The position numbers were made by a program, and so were the translations under genes. Under the pieces are notes generated by a model, which worked only from the letters and a program-made list of their open reading frames with translations, was not told the DNA's origin and ran no database searches. A stretch of DNA of 64,000 nucleotides from an uncultured bacterium (GTDB taxonomy: Bacteria > Patescibacteriota > Patescibacteriia > UBA9570 > XYC2-FULL-38-9), in NCBI GenBank assembly GCA_937996685.1, contig CALKUP010000015.1, positions 7,900 through 71,899 on the forward strand, written 5' to 3'. Shown one piece after another: positions 1 through 55,320 of the stretch. Every line of letters begins with the position of its first letter. The stretch's first letter is position 1.

Positions 1-1165
1 GATCTTGTTCCACTTCATGCATCCGACGTTCCATCTCAAGCAGCTTGTATGGCTTTTCAATCTGACACCCACTCCCCATTCGATCACCAACACGCACTGC
101 CATTAAGTCATCAATGTGTTCTTTACCGATTCGTTTCACTAATCGACGCACACCCGCGTCACTGACTTCCCCGACACTATAAAAAAACATATGATTGCGG
201 ACCAAGTGTTCTGCGCGTTCTGTATCACGCTTGCTGAATTGTAACCGTTTGAAAATATCACGCGTCATATCAGCGCCAACGTGCTCATGGTTATGAAATG
301 TTGCGTTTGGGAACTCCCCTTCTTTGGTACGTGGTTTTCCGACATCATGTAAGAGCGCGGCGAAACGAACAATCGGATCATCCGACGGGCAATACTGCAT
401 CGCTTGCAAATTATGCATGAAGACAGAATAGATATGATGCTTGTTTTGCGCACACTGCACACCTTCTAATAATTCCGGTAAGGTGTGTTGCATGAGACCC
501 GTTTCAAACATCAACCACAATCCCCGGTAATTATTATCCGCGGCGATCGTTTTCAGCAACTCATCACGAATCCGCTCTTGAGACACTTGGGTCAGATTAT
601 TTTTTAAATCCGCAATCGCCGCTTGAGTGTCAGGCTCGAGCGCATAATCAAGCTGCGCGGCAAACCGGCAGGCGCGCATCATCCGAAGGGCATCTTCAGA
701 AAACCGTTCATGCGGGACACCAACAGTCCGAACAATTTTATTACTCAGGTCTTTTTGCCCGCCAAACAAATCCACAAGAGTCACCCCGTCAGTGGCCATC
801 GCGTTGATGGTGAAGTCACGACGCTTCAAGTCCTCTTCCAATGAATCACCAAACTCTACGACATCTGGATGCCGGCCATCAGAATAGCCTTGCTCGGTTC
901 GATATGGCGTCACTTCAATTGTTTGCGGCATATCCTCGTCATCTGTCACCCGCACCGCGACTGTTCCAAATGCATTGTTATAGAGCGTGTCTTCAAAGAC
1001 CTCTTGGATCTGCTCCGGCCGAGCATTCGTTGTCATGTCGTAATCATGCGGGACAACACCACGTAAGAGATCGCGGACACTCCCTCCAACAATGTATGCC
1101 TCAAATCCAGCGTCATTCAAACGCTTGATTGTCTGCTCTATATAATATGGAAGCTGTATGTTCAT
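1..1165 (-). CDS. cca: CCA-adding tRNA nucleotidyltransferase (poly(A) polymerase head domain plus HD domain); start codon at 1165, C-terminus runs off the window start
   Basis: Manual translation of the minus strand gives MNIQLPYYIEQTIKRLNDAGFEAYIVGGSVRDLLRG...DMTT...RDFTINAMA...LLHDVGKP, i.e. the GGSVRD nucleotidyltransferase motif and an HD motif. This ORF is absent from the supplied track because it is edge-truncated. Its ATG overlaps the stop of the upstream methyltransferase gene (ATGA). Confidence 0.8.
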   Translation of the reverse strand, partial: MNIQLPYYIEQTIKRLNDAGFEAYIVGGSVRDLLRGVVPHDYDMTTNARPEQIQEVFEDTLYNNAFGTVAVRVTDDEDMPQTIEVTPYRTEQGYSDGRHPDVVEFGDSLEEDLKRRDFTINAMATDGVTLVDLFGGQKDLSNKIVRTVGVPHERFSEDALRMMRACRFAAQLDYALEPDTQAAIADLKNNLTQVSQERIRDELLKTIAADNNYRGLWLMFETGLMQHTLPELLEGVQCAQNKHHIYSVFMHNLQAMQYCPSDDPIVRFAALLHDVGKPRTKEGEFPNATFHNHEHVGADMTRDIFKRLQFSKRDTERAEHLVRNHMFFYSVGEVSDAGVRRLVKRIGKEHIDDLMAVRVGDRMGSGCQIEKPYKLLEMERRMHEVEQD

Positions 1166-1863
1166 TTTCGTAGGATCATCCAATAATTTGTTGCTGTATA
1201 TGTTTGATTCATTTTTACTGCGGGCTTTGCACGCTTCTCTAAACACACGATCTCAAAATGTGCATACACTTCACGAAGCTCTTCTTCTGTGTAATCTTTT
1301 TGAAATTTTCCATTTGGCCAAAAGCAACTATTCAATTCTGATGCCGGACGCGCAGCAATTTGTTGCGCTTCATATTCATCATCAACTGAAACAACCTGAA
1401 CGAGCGCGTACCCTCCTGGTTTCAGGGTTCGATGCATTTCAGTTATTGCAATCATTCGACCAACTGCAGAGTCGACGTCAATTGTCGCAAATGAATCAAC
1501 GATCAAATCAAAAGAATTATCAGAGAATGACCACGTCTCATCCATTCGATGTTGCACCGCATGAATGTTTTTAGATACACCGCGCGCAATTGCTTGAGCC
1601 GCACAACCCTCAACTGCTTCGGCAACAAAATCCATTGCTGTCACAGAAAAGCCAATTGATGCTGCGTAGAGACTATTGCGCCCTTTGCCGCAACCAATAT
1701 CAAGGACGCTTCCGCTTACAACACCGCGCTCTTTGAGAAACGCAAAAAAATCCACCACACCACCGGATGGATCAAGTGGTGTATCGGCAGTTTCGGACGG
1801 CAAAAAATCACCTGCGACGTGCTCTTGCTGCCAAATAGAAAATTGGTTGTCTGATTGAGACAT
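1162..1863 (-). CDS. class I SAM-dependent methyltransferase
   Basis: 233-aa ORF with the glycine-rich SAM-binding motif VLDIGCGKGRN followed by an acidic residue (AMDF). It is translationally coupled to cca. Confidence 0.8.
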   Translation of the reverse strand: MSQSDNQFSIWQQEHVAGDFLPSETADTPLDPSGGVVDFFAFLKERGVVSGSVLDIGCGKGRNSLYAASIGFSVTAMDFVAEAVEGCAAQAIARGVSKNIHAVQHRMDETWSFSDNSFDLIVDSFATIDVDSAVGRMIAITEMHRTLKPGGYALVQVVSVDDEYEAQQIAARPASELNSCFWPNGKFQKDYTEEELREVYAHFEIVCLEKRAKPAVKMNQTYTATNYWMILRK

Positions 1864-1889
1864 ATATAAATGTCACTAATTATCTCTGT

Positions 1890-1962
1890 GTCCCGGACAC
1901 GATTCGAACGTGTGACCGCCAGCTTAGAAGGCTGATGCTCTATCCAACTGAGCTACCGGGAC
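1890..1962 (-). tRNA. tRNA-Arg (anticodon TCT)
   Basis: The reverse complement GTCCCGGTAGCTCAGTTGGATAGAGCATCAGCCTTCTAAGCTGG...GGTCACACGTTCGAATCGTGTCCGGGAC folds as a cloverleaf with a 7-bp acceptor stem, GTTCGAATC T-loop and anticodon loop CTTCTAA. CCA is not encoded. Confidence 0.85.
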
Positions 1963-2133
1963 AAAAAATTGAATGTACAAAAATGTATATGGATACTATG
2001 TTTTTTTTACCACTTGGTCAATGAATGGTGAGTGGTATATCAAACCGCATCTATACTTTTTCAACACCATCACGCGCGACCCTTCCATTGTTTTTAGAAA
2101 TGTGTATGATACCCTCATACACCCCGATAGCGT

Positions 2134-3627
2134 ATGCAGATTTTTATTCATGGATTTATTTACACAGGCAGCGAAACCGAATGGGCGGACGCTCTTGTCA
2201 TTGACGGTGCTGGCATGATCTTGGCAGTTGGGTCACAAGAAGATCTACAGCGACGCTTCCCGAACGCGATTACAGAAGACCTGAACGGACAATATCTCTT
2301 CCCTGGTTTTATCGACGCACATTCACATCCTGCAATATTTTGTCGGGAAATTCGTGATCCCAATTTTGGCAACGTGCGCAACTGGAACATCGCGCGTTCT
2401 CACATTCAAGAATATATTCAAGCACACCCGAATCGTCCGTGGTATGTCATTTTTGGTTGGAATGAAAAAAAATGGGGCGAGCTCACTCAAGATATCCTCG
2501 ACACGGTGACCACAGACCACCCTCTCTTTATTATTCACGAATCAAATCAAAAGGGTGTTATTAACTCAATCGGAATTGAGACAATTCATGACACAGAAAA
2601 ACGACTTCGTCATACGAACGGTGTGATTCACGAACAAGATTTTCGGCGCGTACAAAAATACACCTTTCCATCATACGATGAAATCCTCACGCTCTTGCCA
2701 CGCTACCTGCGACAGATGCGACTCAACGGAACAACGACAGTCCACGACATGTTAGTCATGAGCATTGATCAGCTGCATGCATACATCACCCTTGATCAAG
2801 CAGGCCTCCTCCCATTAGAAGTCATTGTCTACCTCCATGAATCACTGCTGCACCACCCGGACATTGAAACGTACTTAAAATATACCGGCAAACACCTCAC
2901 GGTCGCGGGAATCAAAGTGTTCATCGACGGGACTGTTCGTGAGCACACTGCCCTGTTCCATGAACCATACAGCGATGGGATTGGCGGCACAGGACTTGCC
3001 AACGTCAGTGAAGAGACGATGCAAGAAATGATTGAACATGCGCAAGAGCTTGGTTTGCGAGATATTGCATTCCACGCCATTGGTGATGCTGGAGTGACTC
3101 GAGCAATTGACATGATTGAGTCGTATAAAAAAAATCAGCCCGACAGTCCGTTGCAATTTCGGATCGAGCACGCTGAATTTGTCCGACCTGCTGATTACAG
3201 CCGATTACATGATTTGGGCATTCGCGTTGTCGTTGAACTGACCAACGTTCTTGATCGCTTTCGATATGCTGACCGACTCGGATCACGCACCAAAGAAATC
3301 AACCGCTTAAAAGACTTGCGCGAAGCTGGCGTCTTTATCGGCACCGGCACAGAAGACAAAGGCATCACCCCAATGGGCGCCATTGCAGAAGCCGCAAAAA
3401 ATGACCTCCTCTCTGCACAGCGAATCTCAATTCACGATGGCTTTGAATTATTCCTCTCAGCTGGCGCAACACTCTCTCTGATGGATCAATTTATTGGATC
3501 ACTCGCGCCAGGCAAACGCGCAGACATGATGCTTTTGAGCGGAAATCCGTTTGAACGAGGCATTCAGCTACAGAGCGTTACGATCACCCAAACATGGTTT
3601 TCTGGCATCCCACAAAACATCCAATAG
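2134..3627 (+). CDS. metal-dependent amidohydrolase family protein
   Basis: 497-aa ORF with N-terminal FPGFIDAHSHP (the HxH metal-binding motif of the amidohydrolase superfamily) and later FHAIGD and IEHAEF motifs. Confidence 0.75.
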   Translation: MQIFIHGFIYTGSETEWADALVIDGAGMILAVGSQEDLQRRFPNAITEDLNGQYLFPGFIDAHSHPAIFCREIRDPNFGNVRNWNIARSHIQEYIQAHPNRPWYVIFGWNEKKWGELTQDILDTVTTDHPLFIIHESNQKGVINSIGIETIHDTEKRLRHTNGVIHEQDFRRVQKYTFPSYDEILTLLPRYLRQMRLNGTTTVHDMLVMSIDQLHAYITLDQAGLLPLEVIVYLHESLLHHPDIETYLKYTGKHLTVAGIKVFIDGTVREHTALFHEPYSDGIGGTGLANVSEETMQEMIEHAQELGLRDIAFHAIGDAGVTRAIDMIESYKKNQPDSPLQFRIEHAEFVRPADYSRLHDLGIRVVVELTNVLDRFRYADRLGSRTKEINRLKDLREAGVFIGTGTEDKGITPMGAIAEAAKNDLLSAQRISIHDGFELFLSAGATLSLMDQFIGSLAPGKRADMMLLSGNPFERGIQLQSVTITQTWFSGIPQNIQ

Positions 3628-3679
3628 TGCGACTATTGCATTTTTTTTTATTTTTGATATAGTAAGTCACGCAATTTAT

Positions 3680-3754
3680 GGTGGCTATAGCTCAGTTGGT
3701 TAGAGCATCGGTTTGTGGTACCGGGGGTCGTGGGTTCAAGTCCCATTAGCCACC
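3680..3754 (+). tRNA. tRNA-His (anticodon GTG) with encoded G-1
   Basis: GGTGGCTATAGCTCAGTTGGTTAGAGCATCGGTTTGTGGTACCGGGGGTCGTGGGTTCAAGTCCCATTAGCCACC. The anticodon loop TTGTGGT gives GTG. The extra 5' G pairs with discriminator C73, as is typical of tRNA-His. Confidence 0.85.
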
Positions 3755-3768
3755 CATGAAAAGAAAGG

Positions 3769-3792
3769 ATGTCCCTCAGGGGGCATTTTTTC
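3769..3792 (+). terminator. intrinsic terminator after tRNA-His and the amidohydrolase gene
   Basis: Hairpin ATGTCCC-TCAG-GGGGCAT (7 bp with one G-U wobble) followed by TTTTTT. Confidence 0.6.
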
Positions 3793-4114
3793 TTTTCATT
3801 TGTTGAATAAATGGACTTGAAGGGTATCCGAGATGACTGCCAAATGGCAGTCGACGAGGAACCCAGGTTTTGAAGGAGATGTGAGCCATGCCGCAAAGCG
3901 GCGGAGCGAGCATCGGGTGAAAAAAAGTCCCACCTATACCTTTATAAAATATTAGCTATCAAGAATAGGACTTCGATCGTATATTTGATTTGTTTATCAA
4001 AACAAGGTTCAATAGCTATATAACATTGTCGGAAAACCTTTTGCATCACAACAAATTAATATAATTTATATACTATATTCATACTTAAAATAAACATAAT
4101 ACATACTATTAATT

Positions 4115-4375
4115 ATGCAATTTATTAAAAAAACACTCGCTCATTTTACCGATATAATGCTTGTCGCAATATTAATTGTACTTATTTTAATTCTTCAAAA
4201 AATACCGCCTGCACAACATTTCTTAACTGCAAATGAAGCGGCGAATGCAAAAATTAACCCACGAGATCTACCTGCGGTTTATATTAAAAATAGCTCACTG
4301 ACTATCGACGGAACTGTAGATGTAGAAAAAATACAAGATAGGGTTGATGTAAAAATTGACGATAGTTTATTTTAG
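4115..4375 (+). CDS. hypothetical small membrane-anchored protein
   Basis: 86-aa ORF with an N-terminal hydrophobic helix, in a ~30% GC stretch. No homology recognised. Confidence 0.4.
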   Translation: MQFIKKTLAHFTDIMLVAILIVLILILQKIPPAQHFLTANEAANAKINPRDLPAVYIKNSSLTIDGTVDVEKIQDRVDVKIDDSLF

Positions 4376-4414
4376 ATATCGATAATTATAATAAACATTC
4401 AATACAATATTTGT

Positions 4415-4669
4415 ATGCTAAAGAACATTTTAAAAAAAATCCCTTGGGTTAAATTAGTGCTTATTTTAATAATTGTTTTAAGTGTTGTGTTTATTTTTTA
4501 TTGGTATTCATGGCAACCAACTGAAGCGCGGAAATCGTGCGACAATGAAGCAAGAGAGGGAGTAAAATCAAACATAGAAAAAAAGAACATAGAAAATAGC
4601 AGCGACCTCTACAGTACTTATACTACTTATTATGAGCGATGTTTGCATCAAAAAGGTTTAGCTAAATAG
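4415..4669 (+). CDS. hypothetical small membrane-anchored protein
   Basis: 84-aa ORF with an N-terminal TM helix, AT-rich, in tandem with the previous ORF. Confidence 0.4.
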   Translation: MLKNILKKIPWVKLVLILIIVLSVVFIFYWYSWQPTEARKSCDNEAREGVKSNIEKKNIENSSDLYSTYTTYYERCLHQKGLAK

Positions 4670-4735
4670 TAGAAGTATCTTCTATAACATTGAAACAAGA
4701 ACCTAATATTATAATCGAGGCACTTGCATTGTTTT

Positions 4736-5377
4736 TTACCAACTCGTTGAAATAGCAAATACCACCAGAAAAATAATACCTAGTCTAAACGTAACATTAA
4801 TATAACTAGGAAGTGCCTGATTAATTTTTTCAGCTGATTTTCTTTTTTGACTTGCCAACTCTTTTTGTTTTTCAAAAAACTGTAGATTGTTTGTCGTACT
4901 TTTTTTGTCTTCCTCTAAAGTCCCATCCCGCATAACTAACATTCCCAGTTCATGTAATGCAAGTTTGTTTTTCTTATCGCGCGCTTCAAAATCAGCGTAA
5001 TCACTCATAGTGTCCCAATACATGGCATCGAGATGACGTTTCGAGAATAAGAGCACTAAAGCAATCGTAATCGCAAAAAATATCCACGCGAGCCAAAGTG
5101 TATGAATGTTTGTTAAAAAGCATAATATCACCACTCGATTTAAATCATCAATTTTATCAATATAAGAAACCGACAATGCAATCGCGCCACCAGAAACCGT
5201 GCCTATATACGCGTAAAATTTAGCATACTCATTCAAAGTACTGCGGTTAGCGGTTTCAATTTTCTCTTTGTGTAACGGCCGTTTTTTATCAAGCTCTCGA
5301 CGCTCTTCCGCCACATCTTGTATCTGCAATTCTTTGTCCATAGGAATAAATCTACCATATACATTTATATGTTCCAA
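4736..5377 (-). CDS. hypothetical membrane protein
   Basis: 213-aa ORF with two central hydrophobic helices. No recognisable domain. Confidence 0.5.
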   Translation of the reverse strand: MEHINVYGRFIPMDKELQIQDVAEERRELDKKRPLHKEKIETANRSTLNEYAKFYAYIGTVSGGAIALSVSYIDKIDDLNRVVILCFLTNIHTLWLAWIFFAITIALVLLFSKRHLDAMYWDTMSDYADFEARDKKNKLALHELGMLVMRDGTLEEDKKSTTNNLQFFEKQKELASQKRKSAEKINQALPSYINVTFRLGIIFLVVFAISTSW

Positions 5378-5714
5378 GGATATTTATTTATTTGGTTACG
5401 CAAGTGCTTTGTTGAGACTGAAAGATATGCCATGTTAGTTGATATAACTGCATGTCCCTTCACGCAGAATTTGAAACTTTCCGCTTCTACTAAACATATA
5501 ACAATTCAGTCCGAACCTCATCCAGCAACCGACCGATGATAAGAAATGAACTTGAAGGGCATTGGCCGCTCAAGTGTTGTCTAAGGAAAATATAACCAAA
5601 GTTCTATAGAAAAACTCCGCTTCAAATGTAGATTTTTTTGATATAAAAAAAGGGTGACGAGGAGACGGCATCGACGAGCGCACAATTGCACTTGAAGTTG
5701 CCGCCCCCCGAGGC

Positions 5715-5960
5715 TCACTGCGGGACGCCGGGATTGGCGAGGTGGAACGCAAGCTTCACAACGAGAAGGCAGAGGATCATCGTCCCCAGACCACTCACCA
5801 TCCCACCCGCGCTGATGCTACCGAGCCTGTAGGACTTCGAACGGATGACGACCAAGCGACCGGGCTGCAGTGCCCCGATCACGCCGAAGATGGTCCCTGT
5901 GCCAAGACCAAGAGCCGCGCCGATCAGGCAGATCGGTTGTACGAGACCAAGGAGCTCCAT
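5715..5960 (-). CDS. small glycine-rich two-TM membrane protein (cassette copy 1); ends ...LAFHLANPGVPQ, loosely reminiscent of ATP synthase c-subunit C-termini but lacks the carboxylate
   Basis: 81-aa ORF in a GC-rich (~62%) stretch with a strong SD (AAAGGAGGAAGCC-ATG), GxxxG-rich TM1 and a second TM. Paralogous to 9550..9765, sharing an SxxYxLGxIS motif. Confidence 0.6.
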   Translation of the reverse strand: MELLGLVQPICLIGAALGLGTGTIFGVIGALQPGRLVVIRSKSYRLGSISAGGMVSGLGTMILCLLVVKLAFHLANPGVPQ

Positions 5961-6048
5961 GGCTTCCTCCTTTTGTAAGATGTCGCCTTGTTAAGTAAGC
6001 GACTACCATGGGTATTGCCAGCCTACCCCTAACAGCTGTTTTGTCAAC
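5961..6048 (-). promoter_or_regulatory. promoter (TTGACA-17-TAGGCT) plus conserved ~53-nt structured 5' leader of cassette copy 1
   Basis: Minus-strand read: TTGACAAAACAGC...TAGGCT...CCAUGGUAGUCGCUUACUUAACAAGGCGACAUCUUACAAAAGGAGGAAGCCAUGG. It has a GUCGCU/GGCGAC hairpin and two self-complementary CCAUGG sites, one at the start codon. About 87% identical to the leader of the paralog at 9766..9852. Confidence 0.5.
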
Positions 6049-6100
6049 GACAACAAGAATGCCGTGGAACATTAATCCACGCTTCCTCAACAAGCCGAAC

Positions 6101-6478
6101 TCAATGATTGTGGTCTGGTGTAAAAAATGTTATTTCAAATCCTTCAGGGTCAGCTATACAAAACGATGTGTCCCCCCAATCATTTTTCCGTATTGGAAAA
6201 ATAACACTTTCATCATCCTTAAACTTTTCCCAGATTGCATGCACATTGGAAACCCGCAAAGAAATATCGTTGCTGTAGGCCGCTCCATCACTTTGATGCG
6301 CGTCAGATAAAAGCTCAATAATGCCACTCCCCGTATCAAACATTACACCGCGATGCGCAGGACCATCATTCCATTCTGTACGTACGGAAAATCCAAGTGT
6401 GTCAGCATAAAATGCCCGAACACGATCAAAATACTTTGGGTATAATTTTAAACGAAATTCTAAAACGTCAATTTTCAT
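6101..6478 (-). CDS. VOC family protein (glyoxalase/bleomycin-resistance fold)
   Basis: 125-aa ORF whose length and motif spacing (MKIDVLEFRLKLYPKYFDRVRAFYADTLGF...GIIELL) fit a single VOC fold. Confidence 0.7.
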   Translation of the reverse strand: MKIDVLEFRLKLYPKYFDRVRAFYADTLGFSVRTEWNDGPAHRGVMFDTGSGIIELLSDAHQSDGAAYSNDISLRVSNVHAIWEKFKDDESVIFPIRKNDWGDTSFCIADPEGFEITFFTPDHNH

Positions 6479-6491
6479 AAGGGAATTCTAC

Positions 6492-6558
6492 AGGTTCTTA
6501 CTTCGTCCAGCAACCAACCTCATGATAAAAAAGGATGTCCTTCAGAGGCATTTTTTTG
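6492..6558 (+). repeat. degenerate copy of the tRNA-His 3' end plus its terminator (att-like direct repeat)
   Basis: CAGGTTCTTACTTCGTCCAGCAACCAACCTCATGATAAAAAAGGATGTCCTTCAGAGGCATTTTTTT aligns with 3732..3792 (TGGGTTCAAGTCCCATTAGCCACCCATGAAAAGAAAGGATGTCCCTCAGGGGGCATTTTTT). The terminator hairpin is preserved. Confidence 0.55.
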
Positions 6559-6576
6559 GAGCGCACTGTGCCTCAC

Positions 6577-7587
6577 CTACATCACTGACGGCAATACATC
6601 TTTAAACTGCTTAAAATGTTGCAACGCCCGATCCTGCAGCATTCTCTCTACCTCATCATTTTCCGCTCCCTCCTGATTTACAAAACGAACCAATATTGCC
6701 TTGCTATTTCTTTTGAGCTCATCAATAACCTCCTGAATATCTTGAACATACTGAGTGATAATTTCTTTAGCTTCCTGGATAGAGCACTGTAATTCTGTCG
6801 CGATACTATTCACAGTATTTTCATCAATACTATCGATATTGATATCTTGAATAGATGTATTTTCAGTTAACATTGAAAAAAGATACCATTCCAATTTTGG
6901 TGAATCAAGATACGAACCAAACACACCGCCATATATCAAATCAATCTGCACCAACTCCGCGAGCAACCATTCCTTCTCAATGGGCTCGTTACTATAGATG
7001 CGCTCTATATCAAAATGCTCATTTTCAACAAGCAATGAAGTCTTCTCTTTTTCAGCGTAAATAGTGGGTGATATAAACGCATGTGCTTGTGGCATTGCCG
7101 CATACAAACGTTGTTCCGCTGTATGACACTCCTCCATCGCCTCTCTATACTCCACTTCTAAATCATATCCAATATTTCGTAGCAGGATTGGATTTTTCTT
7201 ACACGTCTCAATCTGCTCTGGCGTTGCATTCCGCGGATAGAGCACGCCAAAATTCAACACATATTCAAATTTATCCATAGCCGACATACGCATCGGTCGA
7301 CCGTCCTTTCCAACACCTTCATCGGAAGTCCATTCAAATCCTGGAATGACGTAATTATGTGCGTCAAGAAATGTAAAAATCTTTTTTCTTATGTGACTTA
7401 GTGCTGTTTTATATGGCTGCAGTTCTGTTTTCAGAGAGGCATCCCAATTCTCCATTGCACTTGCGTATTCCATATCATTGCTCACCTTCTGGTGTACGAC
7501 TGGATTATTCATTTCTTCCCGAAAAAAAGCCCATGTACTATCAGCTTTTTCAGAATCAAACGCAATATATTGTATATCTATACTCAT
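6577..7587 (-). CDS. hypothetical protein
   Basis: The track ORF runs to a GTG at 7695. I prefer the ATG at 7587 (MSIDIQYIAF...) because the GTG start would overlap the divergent promoter region of the 7734 gene. No known domain. Confidence 0.5.
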   Translation of the reverse strand: MSIDIQYIAFDSEKADSTWAFFREEMNNPVVHQKVSNDMEYASAMENWDASLKTELQPYKTALSHIRKKIFTFLDAHNYVIPGFEWTSDEGVGKDGRPMRMSAMDKFEYVLNFGVLYPRNATPEQIETCKKNPILLRNIGYDLEVEYREAMEECHTAEQRLYAAMPQAHAFISPTIYAEKEKTSLLVENEHFDIERIYSNEPIEKEWLLAELVQIDLIYGGVFGSYLDSPKLEWYLFSMLTENTSIQDINIDSIDENTVNSIATELQCSIQEAKEIITQYVQDIQEVIDELKRNSKAILVRFVNQEGAENDEVERMLQDRALQHFKQFKDVLPSVM

Positions 7588-7733
7588 AGATCGATTGTAG
7601 TTGAGCGGCAATGTACTGTAAAGGACGTCTTTAAGATAAAAAAATAATCTGAGAGCGATGCCTTGATTTTTTAGCTCCGTTATTGTACACCACACCTACC
7701 GCAGTTTTGATCTCAACAGACACGGAGGTTCAC

Positions 7734-8177
7734 ATGCCTATTGTCCGGACCCTGAAACCTCATTGCGGCTACACTCGCCTCATGCTCCACAACACGTGGC
7801 GCAAGGATTGTGGCTTGTACTGGTTCATCGTGTTGCAGCTCGAGGACGATCTCCTGATCATTCTCTCGAATACCGAAGGAGAGCTCGCTCCAACAATTCG
7901 TCAACTGGCTCACAAGGCCATTGAGATGGAAATGGAGCCAATGAAGACGGACTCGCTGTTCACCGACATAATGCGCATCAACCCCGAAGCGCTGCCTATC
8001 GTTGCGACCGGTGCCCTGCACGTGTACAAGAGCGTTCTAGAGTCATACGGCTCCGATCAAGAGCTTTGGGATCGACGCGTTCTCTGGGCGCCGCACTCCC
8101 TAAACACAATGCTTTTAGATGTGCAACTCAACGACGCTGTCCAGGCAGGGATCGAGGAATTCCTCTGCCAGGACTAG
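7734..8177 (+). CDS. hypothetical protein encoded in a GC-rich (~57%) insert
   Basis: ATG at 7734 preceded by a GGAGG SD at -7. The track start (TTG at 7683) is less likely. A GCGGA/TCCGC hairpin plus T-run terminator follows at about 8192-8225. Confidence 0.55.
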   Translation: MPIVRTLKPHCGYTRLMLHNTWRKDCGLYWFIVLQLEDDLLIILSNTEGELAPTIRQLAHKAIEMEMEPMKTDSLFTDIMRINPEALPIVATGALHVYKSVLESYGSDQELWDRRVLWAPHSLNTMLLDVQLNDAVQAGIEEFLCQD

Positions 8178-8309
8178 GCGCTACCGGTCATAAAAAATCA
8201 CAGCACAATTTACTGTCGTTTGCGGACCTGACCACTCCGCTTTTTTTCTTATTATGATTTTTTGCTTCTCAATTTTATCTAGACTATACTAAAAAAATCT
8301 ACATACACT

Positions 8310-8888
8310 ATGAAATATCAAACACCTCTCATTGCAACAACCACCTTTTTAGGAGTCATTGTTCTCATAGGAATCTATCAATATGCCTTTAACAGTGACG
8401 GTGATCTATTTGATGCGTTACAATCATCATCTGCCGTCGAAACAACGTTTCATGAAAATACAGACAGGATAAATCAAATTCATACAACTACCAAGGAAAC
8501 GAACCAGAGCTTTTATTTGCGACCATGGACAACAGGCTGCATCAACACCCTTGATACACAATGCGTAGAAAAATCAGCACTAGACAGCATTGGTTTGCTT
8601 GCCTTTAAAACCGATCCGAAATTCAAACAGGTAGAGCACCTGAAAGAGTTTGGTGAATCAACTTGGTTTACATTTGATGAGCGAAAACATTTTGATAAAC
8701 GTCGAGAAATTGGCATCGTTCTTGTAGACGACCCTGACTCTTTTATCAAAACATTGCACGACTCTCCTTTTTACGAAAACATCGATCAGCTCGACAAACA
8801 CATTACAGAACACCCAACCGCAACCAGTTACGCATTTGCCCGTATAGAAAATGGTGTATACGTTTTTTATCAATACACGCCATATTAG
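8310..8888 (+). CDS. hypothetical membrane-anchored exported protein
   Basis: 192-aa ORF with an N-terminal TM helix (TTTFLGVIVLIGIY). No recognised domain. Confidence 0.55.
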   Translation: MKYQTPLIATTTFLGVIVLIGIYQYAFNSDGDLFDALQSSSAVETTFHENTDRINQIHTTTKETNQSFYLRPWTTGCINTLDTQCVEKSALDSIGLLAFKTDPKFKQVEHLKEFGESTWFTFDERKHFDKRREIGIVLVDDPDSFIKTLHDSPFYENIDQLDKHITEHPTATSYAFARIENGVYVFYQYTPY

Positions 8889-9397: not shown

Positions 9398-9422
9398 CTC
9401 TTCAAAAGTAATAAAAGACTAC

Positions 9423-9452
9423 AAAAAATCCGCTGACTATGCGGATTTTTTT
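9423..9452. terminator. bidirectional intrinsic terminator
   Basis: AAAAAA-ATCCGC-TGACTAT-GCGGAT-TTTTTT. It serves the + VOC gene and the minus-strand small-protein gene. Confidence 0.7.
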
Positions 9453-9549
9453 ATACGATACAATAAGAAATAAGGACAGGAGACGACTATCTTCAAGCGC
9501 GTGTTGCACTGAAAGTTGTCGTCTCCGAAAGATCAGCTTTCTTGCAAAG

Positions 9550-9765
9550 CTAGAAGTACTGCAAGTAATTGAAGATGATCAGCCCGCACGAGATACTCAT
9601 CAACCCAGCTGTAAAGGCAACGGATATAATCTTGCCTAAAGGGTACGTTTGAGAGCCAATAGGCACCGGGACAGTACTCTGGATCATGACGTTGACGCTA
9701 AAAAGAGCAACATAAGACGTCATCAACCCGCCAATCACGCACAGGATCGCAGCAAGGATCGCCAT
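9550..9765 (-). CDS. small two-TM membrane protein (cassette copy 2, paralog of 5715..5960)
   Basis: 71-aa ORF with SD AAAGGGAGGAAACC-ATG. The N-terminus aligns to copy 1 with a 3-codon indel, and the SQTYPLGKIIS motif matches SKSYRLGSIS. Confidence 0.55.
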   Translation of the reverse strand: MAILAAILCVIGGLMTSYVALFSVNVMIQSTVPVPIGSQTYPLGKIISVAFTAGLMSISCGLIIFNYLQYF

Positions 9766-9852
9766 GGTTTCCTCCCTTTGTACGATGTCGCTCTGTTGAG
9801 TAAGCGACGACCATGGATACTATAAACCTACCTTTTGTGGCTGTTTTGTCAA
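9766..9852 (-). promoter_or_regulatory. promoter (TTGACA-16-TAGGTT) plus conserved 5' leader of cassette copy 2
   Basis: Minus-strand read: TTGACAAAACAGCC...TAGGTT...CCAUGGUCGUCGCUUACUCAACAGAGCGACAUCGUACAAAGGGAGGAAACCAUGG. Same hairpin and paired CCAUGG sites as copy 1. Confidence 0.5.
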
Positions 9853-9907
9853 TAAAAAAGGCTCCATACAAAAAACGTCACATACGGATTGACCAACCGT
9901 TTTTTTA

Positions 9908-10764: not shown

Positions 10765-12384
10765 CTACCGACGCACTAAATAGTCTTTCCCATATATATT
10801 CGCAAACTCAGTTGTATATAACTCAAGTGTGTTTTGATTTAAAAATGCGAGGAACGGCGTGTTGTTGCGACCAAGCGTTACTGACAGTTGGTGAGTGACG
10901 AAGAAATCTGTTGTTTCTAGATTCACAACATCATTGACCGCAAAATCAGACTGGCAATTCGCGTCATTACATTTCAAGAATCGGATATATCCGCGGGTTG
11001 TGTCCATATATGCAGCCATTGGAAATCCGTCAGGAGCTAGCGCCATCGTCACTCCTTGTCCCATATCACCAGTGAGATCCACAACGGAAAACTGTGCCGC
11101 ACCATTTGAACACACGGTGTCTCCACATTTTGCGATCTTTAAATTTGCATCGGTTTGATCATAATATCCAACCACCGGCAGTGCGTCTGGACCTACCACC
11201 AATGAATTATAGGAGCCGACCTCTGAAGCTCCTCCGTCATCTAGAACATTTAAAATACTGACCTCGCAATCAAACAATGGGCAAGTCGCGACCTTTAATG
11301 TACCTGCCCTTGAATAGGAAATATAGGTAAACCCTAATGGTGATGTCGCAATACTCACTGGATTCTGACTGACATTGTCTGCATCAAGGGTTCGTGTGAC
11401 ATTCCCAGACGCACAATCAAGACTGCCGCATGATGTTATTTTTAAGTCTGCCGTAGCCGAATCAACATACGCAATAATTGGAAAGCCGCGCTCATTCACC
11501 GTCACTGACAAAAATCCTGTTTGAATATTTTCAACCGATGTAATCACATTGCCGCTAGAGCACGTCGGATTCCCGCATTTCAATAACATGAGATGATGAT
11601 CACTCCAGCGATCATAGACAATGACAGGATTTCCGTCAGACCCAATAATCATCGCGGTGTACAGCGTTGCATCATCCGACAATACGGAAACAGTCGACGC
11701 GGTACATGCAACATTTTCGCAATGGACAAATTTTAAATCACGATCATTCACATTTGTATATGAAATAACCGGCAGCCCGTCTGTGCCAATTGTGGTTGAT
11801 GCACCGGCACCAATATATCCACCACCTGAACCATCAACCGAAGTTGTGATATTTCTTGCTGGAACAGATGGGATTGCTGGTAAAATAGGATCTGCTGCCG
11901 CAACACCAGTTTCATCAGTAGCGCATTCCCAACTACTTGCGCCCATTTTCGCAATTTGCCCTGCGGAACAACTTGGTAACGAGCGAATCGCCGCAACGGT
12001 TGCTTGCAGCGCTGTGAGACTTGAGCTGAGCGTTGCTGTTGTGGTCTCAGTCGTATTCACACGAGAACCCAATGTCTCCACTTGCCCGCTCAAAGTACTC
12101 GCCGCTGCACCCTGCCCTGTCACCGTCGCCTGCAACGCACTCACATCAACCCCGTCAACTGTCTTATTTTCTGGAACGGTAATATTTCCTGTCACTCGTA
12201 AATCATCTTTCACAGTCACCGGCTTTGCTCCTTTTTGCTGAAGATATCCTGTGCTTTTGAATACGACACTTGCAACATTTGTCAGCTTCACTGGTGTTGC
12301 TGCGCCTGCTGCCGCTGGAGCTACCGCACTCAAACAAATACTGAATGCCACAACAAGACGACGGATCGAGAAAAAAGTACGCAT
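10765..12384 (-). CDS. secreted protein with seven ~45-aa Cys-pair tandem repeats (beta-propeller-like) and a tail-fibre-like N-terminal region
   Basis: Signal peptide MRTFFSIRRLVVAFSICLSAVAPAAAGAA. Repeats of the form DG.PvI.Y.d....LK...C....C (e.g. DGLPVISYTNVNDRDLKFVHCENVAC, DGNPVIVYDRWSDHHLMLLKCGNPTC). The N-terminal Ala/Thr/Ser-rich segment is coiled-coil-like. Confidence 0.7.
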   Translation of the reverse strand: MRTFFSIRRLVVAFSICLSAVAPAAAGAATPVKLTNVASVVFKSTGYLQQKGAKPVTVKDDLRVTGNITVPENKTVDGVDVSALQATVTGQGAAASTLSGQVETLGSRVNTTETTTATLSSSLTALQATVAAIRSLPSCSAGQIAKMGASSWECATDETGVAAADPILPAIPSVPARNITTSVDGSGGGYIGAGASTTIGTDGLPVISYTNVNDRDLKFVHCENVACTASTVSVLSDDATLYTAMIIGSDGNPVIVYDRWSDHHLMLLKCGNPTCSSGNVITSVENIQTGFLSVTVNERGFPIIAYVDSATADLKITSCGSLDCASGNVTRTLDADNVSQNPVSIATSPLGFTYISYSRAGTLKVATCPLFDCEVSILNVLDDGGASEVGSYNSLVVGPDALPVVGYYDQTDANLKIAKCGDTVCSNGAAQFSVVDLTGDMGQGVTMALAPDGFPMAAYMDTTRGYIRFLKCNDANCQSDFAVNDVVNLETTDFFVTHQLSVTLGRNNTPFLAFLNQNTLELYTTEFANIYGKDYLVRR

Positions 12385-12521
12385 ATATATTTTGATGTTG
12401 TGTTTATACAGAAAGTATACCCAGACAACAACAGAGCGTCAAAGAAAGAGAGGCTTTTTTTCAATGCCGAACAATGCTATATTCTACACAGAAGATCAAC
12501 AAGATATTTTACGCAAAATCT

Positions 12522-12758
12522 ATGAAAACAATGACCTGCAAACAACTCGGCGGACCATGTGAGATGGCATTTCACACCAACACTGCTGATGAAGCAATTA
12601 AAGCCCAAGACAAACACTTGAAAGAAATGGTTGCTCAAGGCGACGTCGCACACGAACCAGCGAATACAGAAATGCGTGGTCGTTGGAAAAACCCAATTGG
12701 GGGCATAAAGTGGTATATGAAAGCGAAAAAAGATTTCGCTGCATTGTCTGAAGAATAA
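12522..12758 (+). CDS. DUF1059 family small protein
   Basis: Preferred start MKTMTCKQLGGPCEMAFHTNTADEAIKAQDKHLKEM... matches the conserved DUF1059 N-terminus (MxxMxCxxLGGxC). The track ORF begins upstream at 12474. Confidence 0.7.
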   Translation: MKTMTCKQLGGPCEMAFHTNTADEAIKAQDKHLKEMVAQGDVAHEPANTEMRGRWKNPIGGIKWYMKAKKDFAALSEE

Positions 12759-12772
12759 TTATTTTCATACCT

Positions 12773-13333
12773 ATGGCAAAAAAATCTCTTTCTGCAAAAC
12801 AACAAACTGAATTACTTAGTACATTGCAAACTCGTTTTGAAAAAAACATGAATCGCCACAAAGGCGTGAAATGGGACGCTGTTGCAAAACGACTTGAAGC
12901 AAAACCAGCAGCACTCTGGTCACTCTTTCAAATGGAAGAAACCGGCGGTGAACCTGATGTCGTTCGGATCAATAAAAAAACTAGTGAACTCTTGTTTATT
13001 GACTGCGCTCCAGAAAGTCCGAAAGGTCGCAGAAGTTTTTGCTTTGATCGCGCTTCCCTGAATTCTCGCAAAACCTTTAAACCAAAAAATAGCGCACTCG
13101 ATGCAGCAAAAGAAATGGGTATTGAAATTCTCACAGAGGAAGACTATCGTTTCCTGCAAACCCTTGGCGAATTCGATACCAAAACATCCAGCTGGATCGC
13201 AACCCCAACAGAAATTCGAAAACGCGGCGGCGCACTATTTTGTGACCGACGATATGACCATGTTTTCGTTTATCACAATGGCGCAGAATCATATTACGCA
13301 GCCCGTGGATTCCGAGGCTCACTGTTAGTGTAA
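12773..13333 (+). CDS. hypothetical protein (DUF4256-like, from memory)
   Basis: 186-aa soluble ORF. The family assignment needs an HMM check. Confidence 0.5.
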   Translation: MAKKSLSAKQQTELLSTLQTRFEKNMNRHKGVKWDAVAKRLEAKPAALWSLFQMEETGGEPDVVRINKKTSELLFIDCAPESPKGRRSFCFDRASLNSRKTFKPKNSALDAAKEMGIEILTEEDYRFLQTLGEFDTKTSSWIATPTEIRKRGGALFCDRRYDHVFVYHNGAESYYAARGFRGSLLV

Positions 13334-13405
13334 GTACTGATTAACTACTGTCCATTGAATGCAATCTATATTGCGTCTACTATTTTTTTACTTCTACATG
13401 TGACT

Positions 13406-14155
13406 ATGAAAAAAGGGAAAACTCTCACAACCATTCTTGAACAGATTGGACTCAGCGAACAAGAACAAACCCTCTACCTCGCTCTGCTGCATATGGGCAG
13501 CGGAACACTCGCTGACATTGTTCGTGAAACAAAAACGCATCGCCCGACAATGCAAAAATGGATTCCCCTACTTCTTGAAAAGGATCTGATTTCAGCAGTA
13601 ACCAAAGGGAAACGCACGGTATATTATCCTGCTTCCCCGACTCAATTACAAACACTTGTTCAAGAAACCGAACGCGCTTTAAGTGCTTTTTTGCCGAACC
13701 TACAAGATATTTACGATACAACGCACGAAAAACCGACGATTCGATATTTTGAAGGAAAAAATATTACAACTCTTATTTACACGGACGTGCTAGATACATG
13801 TCAAAAAGGTGACATCATCTATCGACATGAAGCGCCCGTCAATTACAAAACATTCACTGAATGGTTGCCGCCTGAATATTTTGAACGAATGCGTGAGCGC
13901 AAAGAAGTTCAGCAATTTGTTATTGTGAATGAAAAAACTGCCAAAGGAAAAAAGCACCTAGACGAAGATATTGAACGTGTTGTACCGACCGATATACACC
14001 TATTCAACACAAACGTTACCCAACTGATTTATAAACACAAAATTGCATTTATTGATTTTGAATCGAGCACTGCTTGGATTATCGAGAACACACGCTTTGC
14101 AGAATTTCAACGCGCGTTGTTTATTGCATTGTTTCAAACACTGGAAAACATCTAA
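13406..14155 (+). CDS. TrmB-family transcriptional regulator
   Basis: N-terminal winged HTH (LTTILEQIGLSEQEQTLYLALLHMGSGTLADIVRETK) and a TrmB-like C-terminal domain. Paralog of 46774..47499. Start moved from the track's 13355 to the ATG at 13406. Confidence 0.7.
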   Translation: MKKGKTLTTILEQIGLSEQEQTLYLALLHMGSGTLADIVRETKTHRPTMQKWIPLLLEKDLISAVTKGKRTVYYPASPTQLQTLVQETERALSAFLPNLQDIYDTTHEKPTIRYFEGKNITTLIYTDVLDTCQKGDIIYRHEAPVNYKTFTEWLPPEYFERMRERKEVQQFVIVNEKTAKGKKHLDEDIERVVPTDIHLFNTNVTQLIYKHKIAFIDFESSTAWIIENTRFAEFQRALFIALFQTLENI

Positions 14156-14156
14156 G

Positions 14157-55109: not shown

Positions 55110-55184
55110 GCTCGCATCGTCTAATGGTTAGGACACCAGGTTTTCATCCTGGCAATCGGGGTTCGATTCCCCGTGCGAGTACCA
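55110..55184 (+). tRNA. tRNA-Glu (anticodon TTC), CCA encoded
   Basis: GCTCGCATCGTCTAATGGTTAGGACACCAGGTTTTCATCCTGGCAATCGGGGTTCGATTCCCCGTGCGAGTACCA. Anticodon loop TTTTCAT. Confidence 0.85.
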
Positions 55185-55320
55185 AAGAGAAAAGTCGTCC
55201 TCCTGGGCGGCTTTTTCTTTTGCTTTCTTGCAAAGGGGAATCGACGATTCACCAGCTTGTGCCCCGGAGGGGTATGCGAGTACCAAAGAGAAAAGTCGTC
55301 CTGCTGGGCGGCTTTTTTGT
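55175..55320 (+). repeat. tandem ~47-bp direct repeat: tRNA-Glu 3' end plus terminator duplicated 99 bp downstream
   Basis: GCGAGTACCAAAGAGAAAAGTCGTCCT[C/G]CTGGGCGGCTTTTT at 55175-55221 and again at 55274-55320. The second copy is preceded by a degenerate T-arm-like CCCCGGAGGGG. Confidence 0.6.

Follow-up and report, generated by a model that had tools for sequence, protein, structure and literature searches.

The window, by which we mean the whole 64-kb stretch of DNA analysed here, carries an intact tRNA-His gene, and a sequence starting at its 3' end recurs in direct orientation 2.7 kb downstream. The initial annotation took the two copies for an att-like scar bounding the remnant of an integrative element. 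We asked whether the repeat marks the ends of such an element, or whether it is a duplication of another kind, and how the DNA beyond the tRNA may have been assembled. The features discussed below are collected in Table 1.

Table 1. Features at and downstream of tRNA-His, in coordinates of the window
Feature	Position	Strand	Remarks
tRNA-His (GTG), intact	3681-3755	+	ARAGORN; Rfam tRNA 65.7 bits
Repeat copy A	3752-3791	+	Last 4 nt of tRNA-His, A-rich spacer, hairpin GGATGTCCC/GGGGGCAT, T-run
Right arm of palindrome	3798-3827	+	Contains GGACTTGAA and the motif ATGGACTTGAAGGGTAT (3811-3827)
Remainder of the 195-nt insert (3756-3950)	3828-3950		Separates tRNA-His from the displaced tRNA end
Pseudo-3' end of tRNA-His with putative serine recombinase C-terminal relic	3951-3993	-	E 0.046 against L007
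AT-rich module	3994-5513		The ten 500-nt stretches of the window with the lowest GC all lie in 3936-5513
Small ORF	4115-4375	+	N-terminal hydrophobic stretch
Small ORF	4415-4669	+	N-terminal hydrophobic stretch
201-aa ORFan	4736-5341	-	Many hydrophobic stretches
Partial third copy C	5514-5562	+	Left part resembles the left of copy B; right part resembles the motif at 3806-3827
Small-membrane-protein cassette	5607-6047	-	CDS 5715-5960
VOC/glyoxalase-family gene, 125 aa	6101-6478	-	PF00903, E 2.3e-8
Repeat copy B	6500-6557	+	6517-6557, diverged copy of terminator A; 6500-6516, arm common to copy C
336-aa protein, no assigned function	6577-7587	-	Small family, 32 representatives
148-aa protein	7731-8177	+	About 54% GC; no family match
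Right edge of islet	8256-8511	+	L006 colinearity resumes at the T-run of the L006 tRNA-His terminator

The terminator repeat and its copies

The repeat itself proved real. Copy A (ACC-CATGAAAAGAAAGGATGTCCCTCAGGGGGCATTTTTT) and copy B (ACCTCATGATAAAAAAGGATGTCCTTCA-GAGGCATTTTTT, 6517-6557) match in 35 of 41 columns (blastn-short E 1.7e-4), and this is the sole match of its strength in the window. Chance likeness between independently evolved terminators, an objection that the initial annotation had raised against its own reading, is effectively refuted and in our view extremely improbable: many terminators do share the shape of an A-run, a hairpin and a T-run, but the local score of 48 compares with at most 23 at unrelated places (both strands of the 64-kb window, 128 kb of sequence), none of 100 shuffles matched the motif, and the copies share both the loop TCAG and the non-structural spacer CATGA.AA.AAAGG. 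The repeat comprises the spacer after tRNA-His, the hairpin and the T-run, and of the tRNA itself it includes no more than the final 3-4 nt. The longest exact block common to both copies is 11 nt, and the six differences are scattered across the terminator, leaving no exact core. These differences are not adenine-specific, and DGR-type mutagenesis was rejected as their source.

The claim that the 3' 23 nt of tRNA-His reappear at 6492-6519 was not borne out. The tRNA body (3715-3752) aligned to 6479-6516 with a score below the shuffle mean (p = 0.77), an Islander-style blastn search with the tRNA genes (E <= 1000) gave no match at 6492-6519 among the eight best listed per tRNA, and at E <= 10 the Rfam model recognized not even part of a tRNA in 5440-6600. 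Pseudo-acceptor arms considered at 6492-6519 and 5514-5530 were likewise rejected, being at chance level by shuffles, absent from the eight best blastn matches listed for the tRNA gene and not recognized by the tRNA covariance model. An alignment of AGCCACC with AGCAACC across a 5-nt insertion is conceivable, without being demonstrably real. By definition, one end of an Islander-type island is occupied by an intact tRNA or tmRNA gene, here tRNA-His at 3681-3755, and the other by a displaced fragment of the same tDNA in the same orientation, which the site 6492-6519 does not contain. The distal repeat is a second copy of the terminator, not of tRNA-His.

Copy A forms a strong intrinsic terminator in both directions, with a GC-containing hairpin and U-run that fold at -23.9 kcal/mol (z -6.2; 0 of 200 shuffles equally stable). 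It resembles textbook Rho-independent terminators in its A-run, its 18-bp stem including the A/U extension and its T-run after a tRNA gene, and would today terminate tRNA-His transcription. A second copy of an intrinsic terminator at a distance of 2.7 kb, complete with non-structural spacer, would however not normally be expected, and copy B folds only weakly (-8.5 kcal/mol, z -1.3, and -9.0 kcal/mol on the other strand, z about -1.2 for both). In view of this contrast in folding, copy B looks like a decaying copy of terminator A; situated between the stop of the 336-aa gene (6577) and the start of the VOC gene (6478), it is at most a weak terminator between them. Another assembly of the same strain has the identical arrangement and layout around copy B.

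Terminator A also forms the centre of an 87-nt imperfect palindrome (3735-3821; -41.6 kcal/mol, z -6.0), the outer arms of which reach p about 0.04 by themselves. The element GGACTTGAA in its right arm is the reverse complement of the tRNA-His T-arm TTCAAGTCC. The T-arm-like words TTCAAGTCCCAT and AAGTCCCA were considered as an enrichment of the islet and rejected, as they are over-represented window-wide.

The partial copy C resembles the left of copy B at 80.6% of a 36-column alignment (TCCAGCAACC.ACC..ATGATAA.AAA) and the motif at 3806-3827 at 19 of 22 positions, both matches being marginally significant (E 0.039 and 0.35). The second of these corresponds to the pair of inner repeats of about 20 nt that had been noted before; the pair exists (15/17 identical, 19/22 when extended), but it sits at 3811-3827 and 5546-5562 rather than at 3818 and 5534. 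To their right, copies A, B and C have nothing in common.

A much cleaner layout of this kind is present at tRNA-Glu in the same window, where the repeat matches in 42 of 43 nt and includes the last 11 nt of the tRNA. A mini-element common to tRNA-His and tRNA-Glu was considered and rejected, since the best matches of the 58-nt tRNA-Glu spacer lie away from the tRNA-His ends. The relatives L004 and L007 showed no direct repeats of the DNA flanking the tRNA.

Extent and contents of the islet

The edges of the variable DNA were defined by comparison with relatives. L006 aligns to positions 1-3755 of the window and again to 8256-8511, with 46 nt between these blocks in L006, and the islet is thus placed at 3756-8255. 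Colinearity from 8256 runs on through the promoter and start of the gene 8310-8888, whose orthologue (60% identical) adjoins tRNA-His in L006, the only relative that carries this gene; the L006-type flank consists of GAAGTTCTAACTCG... and a terminator. The amidohydrolase beside tRNA-His is about 62% identical to that of L006 at the amino-acid level. The A and B repeats therefore do not bound the islet, as copy B is internal to it. In the comparison of relatives that had been suggested for 3796-6490, the block missing from L006 is 3756-8255 and not 3792-6516. The edges rest on this single, distant relative, and a deletion in L006 is a possible alternative.

Searches for closer relatives yielded proteins of only 24-31% identity in a genome scan, three unrelated lineages in a metagenome scan with the tRNA 3' half, and four homologues of 61-63% identity in a protein database. 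Four relatives keep the order methyltransferase, tRNA-Arg, amidohydrolase and tRNA-His, and the tRNA-His sequence is identical across L004-L007; the DNA beyond it differs in each. L004 continues with a retroelement (RT plus bAvd), L007 with a large serine recombinase (LSR) and L006 with the 8310-8888 orthologue. In L004, a Resolvase/Recombinase gene also follows tRNA-His at a distance of about 9.4 kb.

The 4.5-kb islet consists mostly of ORFans and is a compositional mosaic, with 32% GC at 3936-5513, 62% at 5715-5960 and 54.5% at 7736-8177, compared with 45.0 +/- 3.8% outside; the first stretch, 3756-3935, is roughly average at 48%. The AT-rich ORFs, the small-membrane-protein cassette and the VOC gene that the initial annotation listed between the repeats were all found. 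The promoter/5' UTR and the 3' UTR of the cassette are paralogous to those of 9420-9852, while the encoded proteins are not detectably alike. The two VOC genes, considered as paralogues that would point to local duplication of a whole block, are not similar, and this idea was rejected. Identity within the family of the 336-aa protein is at most 34% apart from the query's own sequence, and a terminator-like hairpin lies at 8224-8249, downstream of the 148-aa gene. Phage and plasmid DNA gave no match to the islet except the tRNA itself, the 148-aa and 336-aa genes had no phage or plasmid protein matches, no islet ORF matched a PHROG, and no viral contig was found with the tRNA 3' end, the terminator motif or the L007 recombinase.

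A putative recombinase relic beside tRNA-His

The last 10-11 nt of tRNA-His are duplicated across the 195-nt segment 3756-3950, which includes a perfect hairpin, GACTGCC-AAAT-GGCAGTC (3835-3852). The terminal 11 nt of the tRNA are ATTAGCCACCC (3745-3755), and the displaced pseudo-3' end is ATTAGCTATC (3951-3960), 196 nt after the tRNA. A longer displaced fragment, 3912-3960 with long gaps allowed, was rejected as not significant (p 0.03-0.06). The support for the 10-nt pseudo-end comes solely from its colinearity with L007, in which a gene with a Zn_ribbon_recom domain has its stop codon inside tRNA-His; the zinc-ribbon part of this gene is seen, and its N-terminus runs off the 3.8-kb contig.

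Positions 3951-3988 of the window match L007 2934-2971 at 27 of 38 nt. The minus-strand translation, TNQIYDRSPILDS, has the counterpart FSQMYDRSPVLGG in L007, with the stop at the same position; the peptides agree at 8 of 14 positions including the stop, as against at most 6 at all other places in six frames of the 64 kb, and five codon differences are synonymous. Window-wide, the match is inconspicuous (tblastn E 1.4; blastn score 16, the next-best being 15.5), and its weight lies in position, orientation and the shared stop codon, all of which were noticed after the match. From this sequence comparison, 3951-3993 appears to join a displaced tRNA-His end to what is left of a large serine recombinase, the last 13 codons of its C-terminus.

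No intact integrase lies in the interval, as the initial annotation stated, although the relic qualifies that statement. Scans with Pfam or NCBIfam detected no recombinase among the proteins scanned, tblastn with the relatives' recombinases detected none in the 64-kb window, and for tyrosine integrases there was neither a Phage_integrase match among the islet ORFs nor a tblastn match with the L004 tyrosine recombinase. Where an LSR element would have a gene with resolvase, recombinase and zinc-ribbon parts at one end, the window holds only the 13-codon relic.

Origin of the islet

We tentatively favour, at somewhat short of an even chance, the reading that successive integrations at a tRNA-His hot spot left 3756-8255 as a layered islet, now dead. 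As the relatives suggest, an LSR element would first have integrated in the short spacer that separates the terminator from tRNA-His, with the recombinase gene reading towards tRNA-His and ending inside it, as it still does in L007. The original terminator would have been displaced to the far side of the element, leaving its T-run at 8256. The recombinase gene would then have been destroyed, leaving its last 13 codons and the old tRNA 3' end at 3951-3993, its former space being taken by what is now AT-rich ORFan DNA and the rest by small genes of very different GC content. The 195-nt piece would have been inserted later at the tRNA-His 3' end, placing the strong bidirectional terminator directly behind the tRNA. 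Serine recombinases leave short common cores only (PMC10654092), so they would not yield a 41-nt direct repeat, and the A/B duplication thus needs a second process. Copies B and C would be diverged relatives of the terminator unit within the islet, perhaps fossil junctions or terminators from earlier rounds of similar insertion that have lost any recombination function.

The original proposal of a single element of about 2.7 kb (3792-6516), presumably inserted by a tyrosine integrase at the tRNA-His 3' end, with copies A and B as attL and attR and the integrase later lost, is improbable by comparison. The repeat is indeed direct, correctly oriented and begins at the tRNA 3' end, the DNA between its copies is compositionally foreign, and tRNA-Glu offers the cleaner example of the same layout; like Islander-type islands (PMC4383910), the islet has an intact tRNA at one end, odd foreign DNA downstream and the 10-nt pseudo-end. 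Such islands, however, are made by tyrosine integrases that regenerate the tDNA and displace a tDNA fragment (PMC4383910), whereas here the 41-nt repeat is terminator and not tDNA, its identity is spread without an exact core, and copy B has no displaced tRNA fragment. The repeat also fails to bound the variable segment, since the extra DNA relative to L006 goes 1.7 kb past copy B, to 8255. Furthermore, the window has no integrase gene and, by the search with the relatives' integrase, no tyrosine-integrase remnant; the sole recombinase trace is of the serine family and lies inside the supposed element, beside its own pseudo-tRNA end. What stands of the proposal is a lineage-specific, compositionally foreign insertion zone at tRNA-His with remnants of integration, without A and B as its ends.

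An origin without any mobile element is also unlikely, if slightly less so: in a fast-evolving chromosomal stretch, the terminator would have been copied by microhomology-mediated template switching or gene conversion to serve neighbouring genes, and L006 would have deleted genes. Both copies do lie at expected terminator sites, after tRNA-His and after the stop of the 336-aa gene, terminator A sits within an extended quasi-palindrome of the kind that template switching produces, the islet holds a paralogue of a nearby chromosomal cassette, and an intact mobility gene is absent. Yet the weak folding of copy B on both strands is not what selection for a terminator would be expected to leave, the 32% and 62% GC within 2 kb together with the ORFans point to foreign DNA, and the relic and the L007 arrangement argue for integration at this site. 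Very unlikely is a non-autonomous, cis-mobilizable array whose repeats are still usable, the modules A-C and C-B being moved by a recombinase encoded elsewhere in the genome. The three same-orientation copies share ACC.(C/G)ATGA.AA.AAA and delimit recombinase-less modules, much as attL, internal att and attR do in the accretion arrays of CIME/ICE systems (PMC5704250). The copies are, however, only 80-86% alike, with no shared exact core above 11 nt, copy C has no hairpin, the window offers neither a recombinase, by the domain scans and tblastn above, nor a helper element or evidence of mobility, and the arrangement around copy B is unchanged in the other assembly.

Compared with known LSR elements (phiC31, Bxb1, A118-type prophages and ICEs), the favoured layered islet agrees in that the L007 Zn_ribbon_recom gene stands at the edge of variable DNA, abutting its target, that the window retains a colinear relic of this gene, and that L004 also has its Resolvase/Recombinase gene near tRNA-His. 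It differs in that the last codons of the L007 gene overlap tRNA-His, and in that an intact recombinase is absent from the window, where attL and attR are not definable either. LSR elements would have attL and attR with no more than a short crossover core in common, flanked by imperfect dyad half-sites; the L007 contig of 3.8 kb stops short of the far end of its element, and in the window the ends are decayed. Known serine integrases have short common cores and, in the surveys PMC4383910 and PMC10654092, no tRNA sites; tRNA-linked targets are described there for tyrosine integrases only. We regard as speculative, and improbable at present, the further idea that the att site of a large serine recombinase in this lineage consists of the few bases that separate tRNA-His from its terminator, the reading frame of the recombinase crossing att and stopping in the tRNA so that its last residues would be host-encoded, and that the duplications of tRNA end and terminator at tRNA-His (196 nt) and tRNA-Glu (101 nt) are a recurrent footprint of repair or insertion. 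If true, this would be a serine-integrase element with a tRNA-linked target.

The value of these observations is mostly corrective: an att scar should not be assumed whenever a repeat starts at the 3' end of a tRNA, and here the repeat is a duplicated terminator. The likely true trace of integration, the 13-codon relic with its pseudo-tRNA end, lies elsewhere and was revealed only through comparison with a relative. Should the serine-recombinase reading be false, this would be an ordinary decayed islet whose cargo has no assigned role. If it is true, a bacterial lineage that has been little sampled would have an insertion hot spot at tRNA-His, and the candidate attB, recombinase and tRNA arrangement would be directly testable.

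Terminator repeats 3' of tRNA-His

We found that a segment starting in the last bases of tRNA-His (copy A) recurs in the same orientation within the window (copy B), with 35 of 41 columns identical and a local score of 48, whereas unrelated 120-nt stretches on both strands reach at most 23. The pair gave a blastn-short E value of 1.7e-4, and the consensus motif had no matches in 100 shuffles; thus the repeat is real and homologous rather than convergent. The TCAG loop and a non-structural spacer are also common to both copies.

Positions of the tRNA genes, repeat copies and 336-aa gene
Feature	Position	Strand	Details
tRNA-His(GTG)	3681-3755	+	
Copy A	3752-3791	+	ACC-CATGAAAAGAAAGGATGTCCCTCAGGGGGCATTTTTT
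Copy B	6517-6557	+	ACCTCATGATAAAAAAGGATGTCCTTCA-GAGGCATTTTTT
Copy C (partial third copy)	5514-5562		
336-aa gene	6577-7587	-	ATG at 7587; mechanical ORF 6577-7695, 372 aa
tRNA-Glu	55110-55184		

The initial annotation described the repeat as the tRNA-His 3' end together with its terminator. The terminator is indeed repeated, but the repeat takes in no more than the final 3-4 nt of the tRNA. The tRNA body (3715-3752) aligned to 6479-6516 below the shuffle mean (p = 0.77), and the alignment repeated at 5485-5530 gave p = 0.42. In a blastn search patterned on the Islander procedure for tRNA-gene genomic islands (tRNA gene as query, word size 7, E <= 1000; PMC4383910), the copy B site was absent among the eight best matches listed per tRNA, and the Rfam tRNA model had no match on 5440-6600 at E <= 10. 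The proposed pseudo-acceptor arm at copy B is therefore unsupported. An AGCCACC/AGCAACC alignment with a 5-nt insertion was likewise indistinguishable from chance.

Copy A folds as an intrinsic terminator that is strong and bidirectional (-23.9 kcal/mol, z -6.2; none of the shuffles is equally stable). The fold of copy B is weak whichever strand is taken (-8.5 and -9.0 kcal/mol, z about -1.2), and it resembles a copy in decay more than a terminator selected in its own right. Copy C and the left side of copy B have TCCAGCAACC.ACC..ATGATAA.AAA in common (E 0.039; 80.6% of a 36-column alignment). Copy C then runs on into ATGAACTTGAAGGGCAT, which matches 3806-3827 just 3' of copy A (E 0.35, 19/22); a degenerate motif for this right part has its only two occurrences at these sites, with 0.08 expected. 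Copy A is also the midpoint of an imperfect palindrome of 87 nt (3735-3821; -41.6 kcal/mol, z -6.0), in whose outer arms the tRNA T-arm TTCAAGTCC pairs with GGACTTGAA, an inverted T-arm copy. The outer arms taken alone are marginal (p about 0.04), and the structure may be a quasi-palindrome lengthened by template switching.

Elsewhere in the window, tRNA-Glu has a second copy of its last 11 nt and terminator (55174-55216) at a distance of 101 nt downstream (55275-55317; 42/43 identity), a much cleaner duplication than at tRNA-His, with almost nothing in the 58-nt spacer between copies. By eye, this spacer may hold a degenerate T-arm copy (GGGGAATCGACGATTCACCAG versus GGCAATCGGGGTTCGATTCCCCG). 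The top hit in a search with the spacer, an exact 14-nt match GCTTTCTTGCAAAG read by eye at about 55221-55234 and about 9535-9548, directly follows, at the latter site, the stop codon of the second small-membrane gene; each copy forms a small hairpin GCTTT...AAAGC, and chance alone would give about 0.02 such matches.

Limits and content of the islet

No close relatives were found in the genome scan or the protein database, and the amidohydrolase adjoining tRNA-His had only four homologues there, at 61-63% identity. The relatives' contigs (L004/L005, L006 and L007) all retain the order methyltransferase, tRNA-Arg(-), amidohydrolase, tRNA-His(+), with an identical tRNA-His, and diverge from its first 3' base. 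In L004 (GCA_964492735.1), a diversity-generating retroelement with reverse transcriptase and bAvd follows the tRNA, with a Resolvase/Recombinase gene beginning about 9.4 kb further on; the retroelement (11686-14373) directly adjoins tRNA-His and includes a 248-aa candidate target gene. In L007 (JGI 3300042861), a large serine recombinase gene with a Zn_ribbon_recom domain (minus strand; region 2870-3756) converges on tRNA-His, its stop codon falling inside the acceptor stem.

In L006, an orthologue (60% identity) of window gene 8310-8888 starts about 100 nt 3' of tRNA-His. By blastn, L006 aligns colinearly to window 1-3755 and again to 8256-8511, restarting at the T-run of its tRNA terminator, and the gap is 46 nt in L006 versus 4,500 nt in the window. 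The extra DNA, or islet, delimited against this sole informative relative, is thus 3756-8255. Copy B falls inside this segment, so that copies A and B do not mark the limits of the variable DNA as initially proposed. L006 and L007 share only the first ~12 nt 3' of the tRNA (CCAAGAC.GGAC), which is consistent with an attachment site there.

The islet is mosaic in composition: GC is 32% in 3936-5513, where the ten lowest-GC 500-nt windows of the entire 64 kb lie, 62% in the small-membrane CDS (5715-5960), 40% in the VOC gene, 39% in the 336-aa gene and 54.5% in 7736-8177, against 45.0 +/- 3.8% outside. Only the VOC gene received a family assignment. The homologue search with the 201-aa ORF found none. 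The 336-aa protein falls in a small family that lacks annotation; all members align from residue 37 of the 372-aa ORF, one database entry being the exact 336-aa product. The islet had no DNA or protein matches to phages or plasmids, and viral contigs gave no islet-related matches. The wider window is ordinary chromosome (ValRS, RuvB, PilB, photolyase); its ORF 18990-25397 (-) encodes 2135 aa with >20 diverged copies of a ~48-aa (144-nt) repeat.

The untranslated parts of the small-membrane-protein cassette at 5607-6047 are paralogous to those of 9420-9852. The promoter/5' UTRs (5940-6050 and 9745-9855, both minus strand) are 79% identical over 100 nt, and the 3' UTRs with terminators (5607-5717 and 9420-9535) are alike, whereas the proteins (81 and 71 aa) have no detectable similarity (E 2.0) and the CDSs differ in GC (62% versus 48%). 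In the predicted fold of the conserved leader, the start-codon region RCCATGG is paired with CCATGGT, and the enclosed sequence holds a GTCGC...GCGAC hairpin as well as the GGAGG ribosome-binding site, a layout typical of translationally silenced small-toxin mRNAs; the leader had no Rfam match.

A putative recombinase relic and the history of the locus

The relatives' recombinases, used as queries against the window, matched no integrase, intact or degraded, with one exception: at 3993-3952 (minus strand), the C-terminal residues of the L007 recombinase match. The integrase reported as absent is thus missing in intact form, but probably left a C-terminal relic. Window 3951-3988 (ATTAGCTATCAAGAATAGGACTTCGATCGTATATTTGA) agrees at 27/38 nt (E 0.046 within the islet) with L007 2934-2971 (ATTAGCCACCCAAGACGGGACTTCTGTCATACATTTGA), which comprises the tRNA-His 3' end and the recombinase's final codons. 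The translations, TNQIYDRSPILDS and FSQMYDRSPVLGG, each followed by a stop, agree at 8 of 14 positions, the stop among them; in a six-frame scan of the 64-kb window, no other position reached 7 and seven reached 6. Five codon differences are synonymous (TAC/TAT, GAT/GAC, CGA/AGA, CCT/CCC, CTT/TTG), a pattern expected of once-coding DNA. Window-wide the match is weak (tblastn E 1.4; DNA score 16 versus 15.5 for the runner-up), and its weight derives from lying 196 nt from tRNA-His, in L007-like orientation, and adjoining a pseudo-copy of the final 10 nt of the tRNA. The relic and the duplicated tRNA end at 3951-3993 are probably genuine; the last 10-11 nt of the tRNA (3745-3755, 3951-3960) would then be duplicated around a 195-nt insert starting with terminator A.

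We infer that an element with a serine recombinase inserted itself between tRNA-His and the terminator of this gene, as in L007, and decayed in place. The tRNA 3' end would later have received a 195-nt insertion that brought the new terminator, copy A; copies B and C would be older, diverged relatives of this unit. Since serine recombinases leave short common cores only (PMC10654092), such an enzyme would not be the source of the terminator duplication, which possibly arose by a microhomology-mediated copy or by another integration event involving a long segment of identity.

The initial observation was thus partly confirmed and its interpretation partly supported. The locus behaves like a tRNA-linked integration hot spot, but two features that define the Islander class are missing: no displaced tDNA fragment lies at the proposed end, and there is no tyrosine integrase. 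Its likeness to accretion arrays is superficial, because it has neither an exact core nor a helper element. Its one unusual element is the link to a serine recombinase, based on the truncated L007 contig and the 13-codon relic; a serine integrase with a tRNA-linked target is an unlikely reading. The tRNA-His locus is a decayed islet at a tRNA gene, of a known kind, and nothing suggests continued mobility. Today, transcription of tRNA-His would end at copy A, and copy B would be at most a weak insulator between the minus-strand genes on either side.
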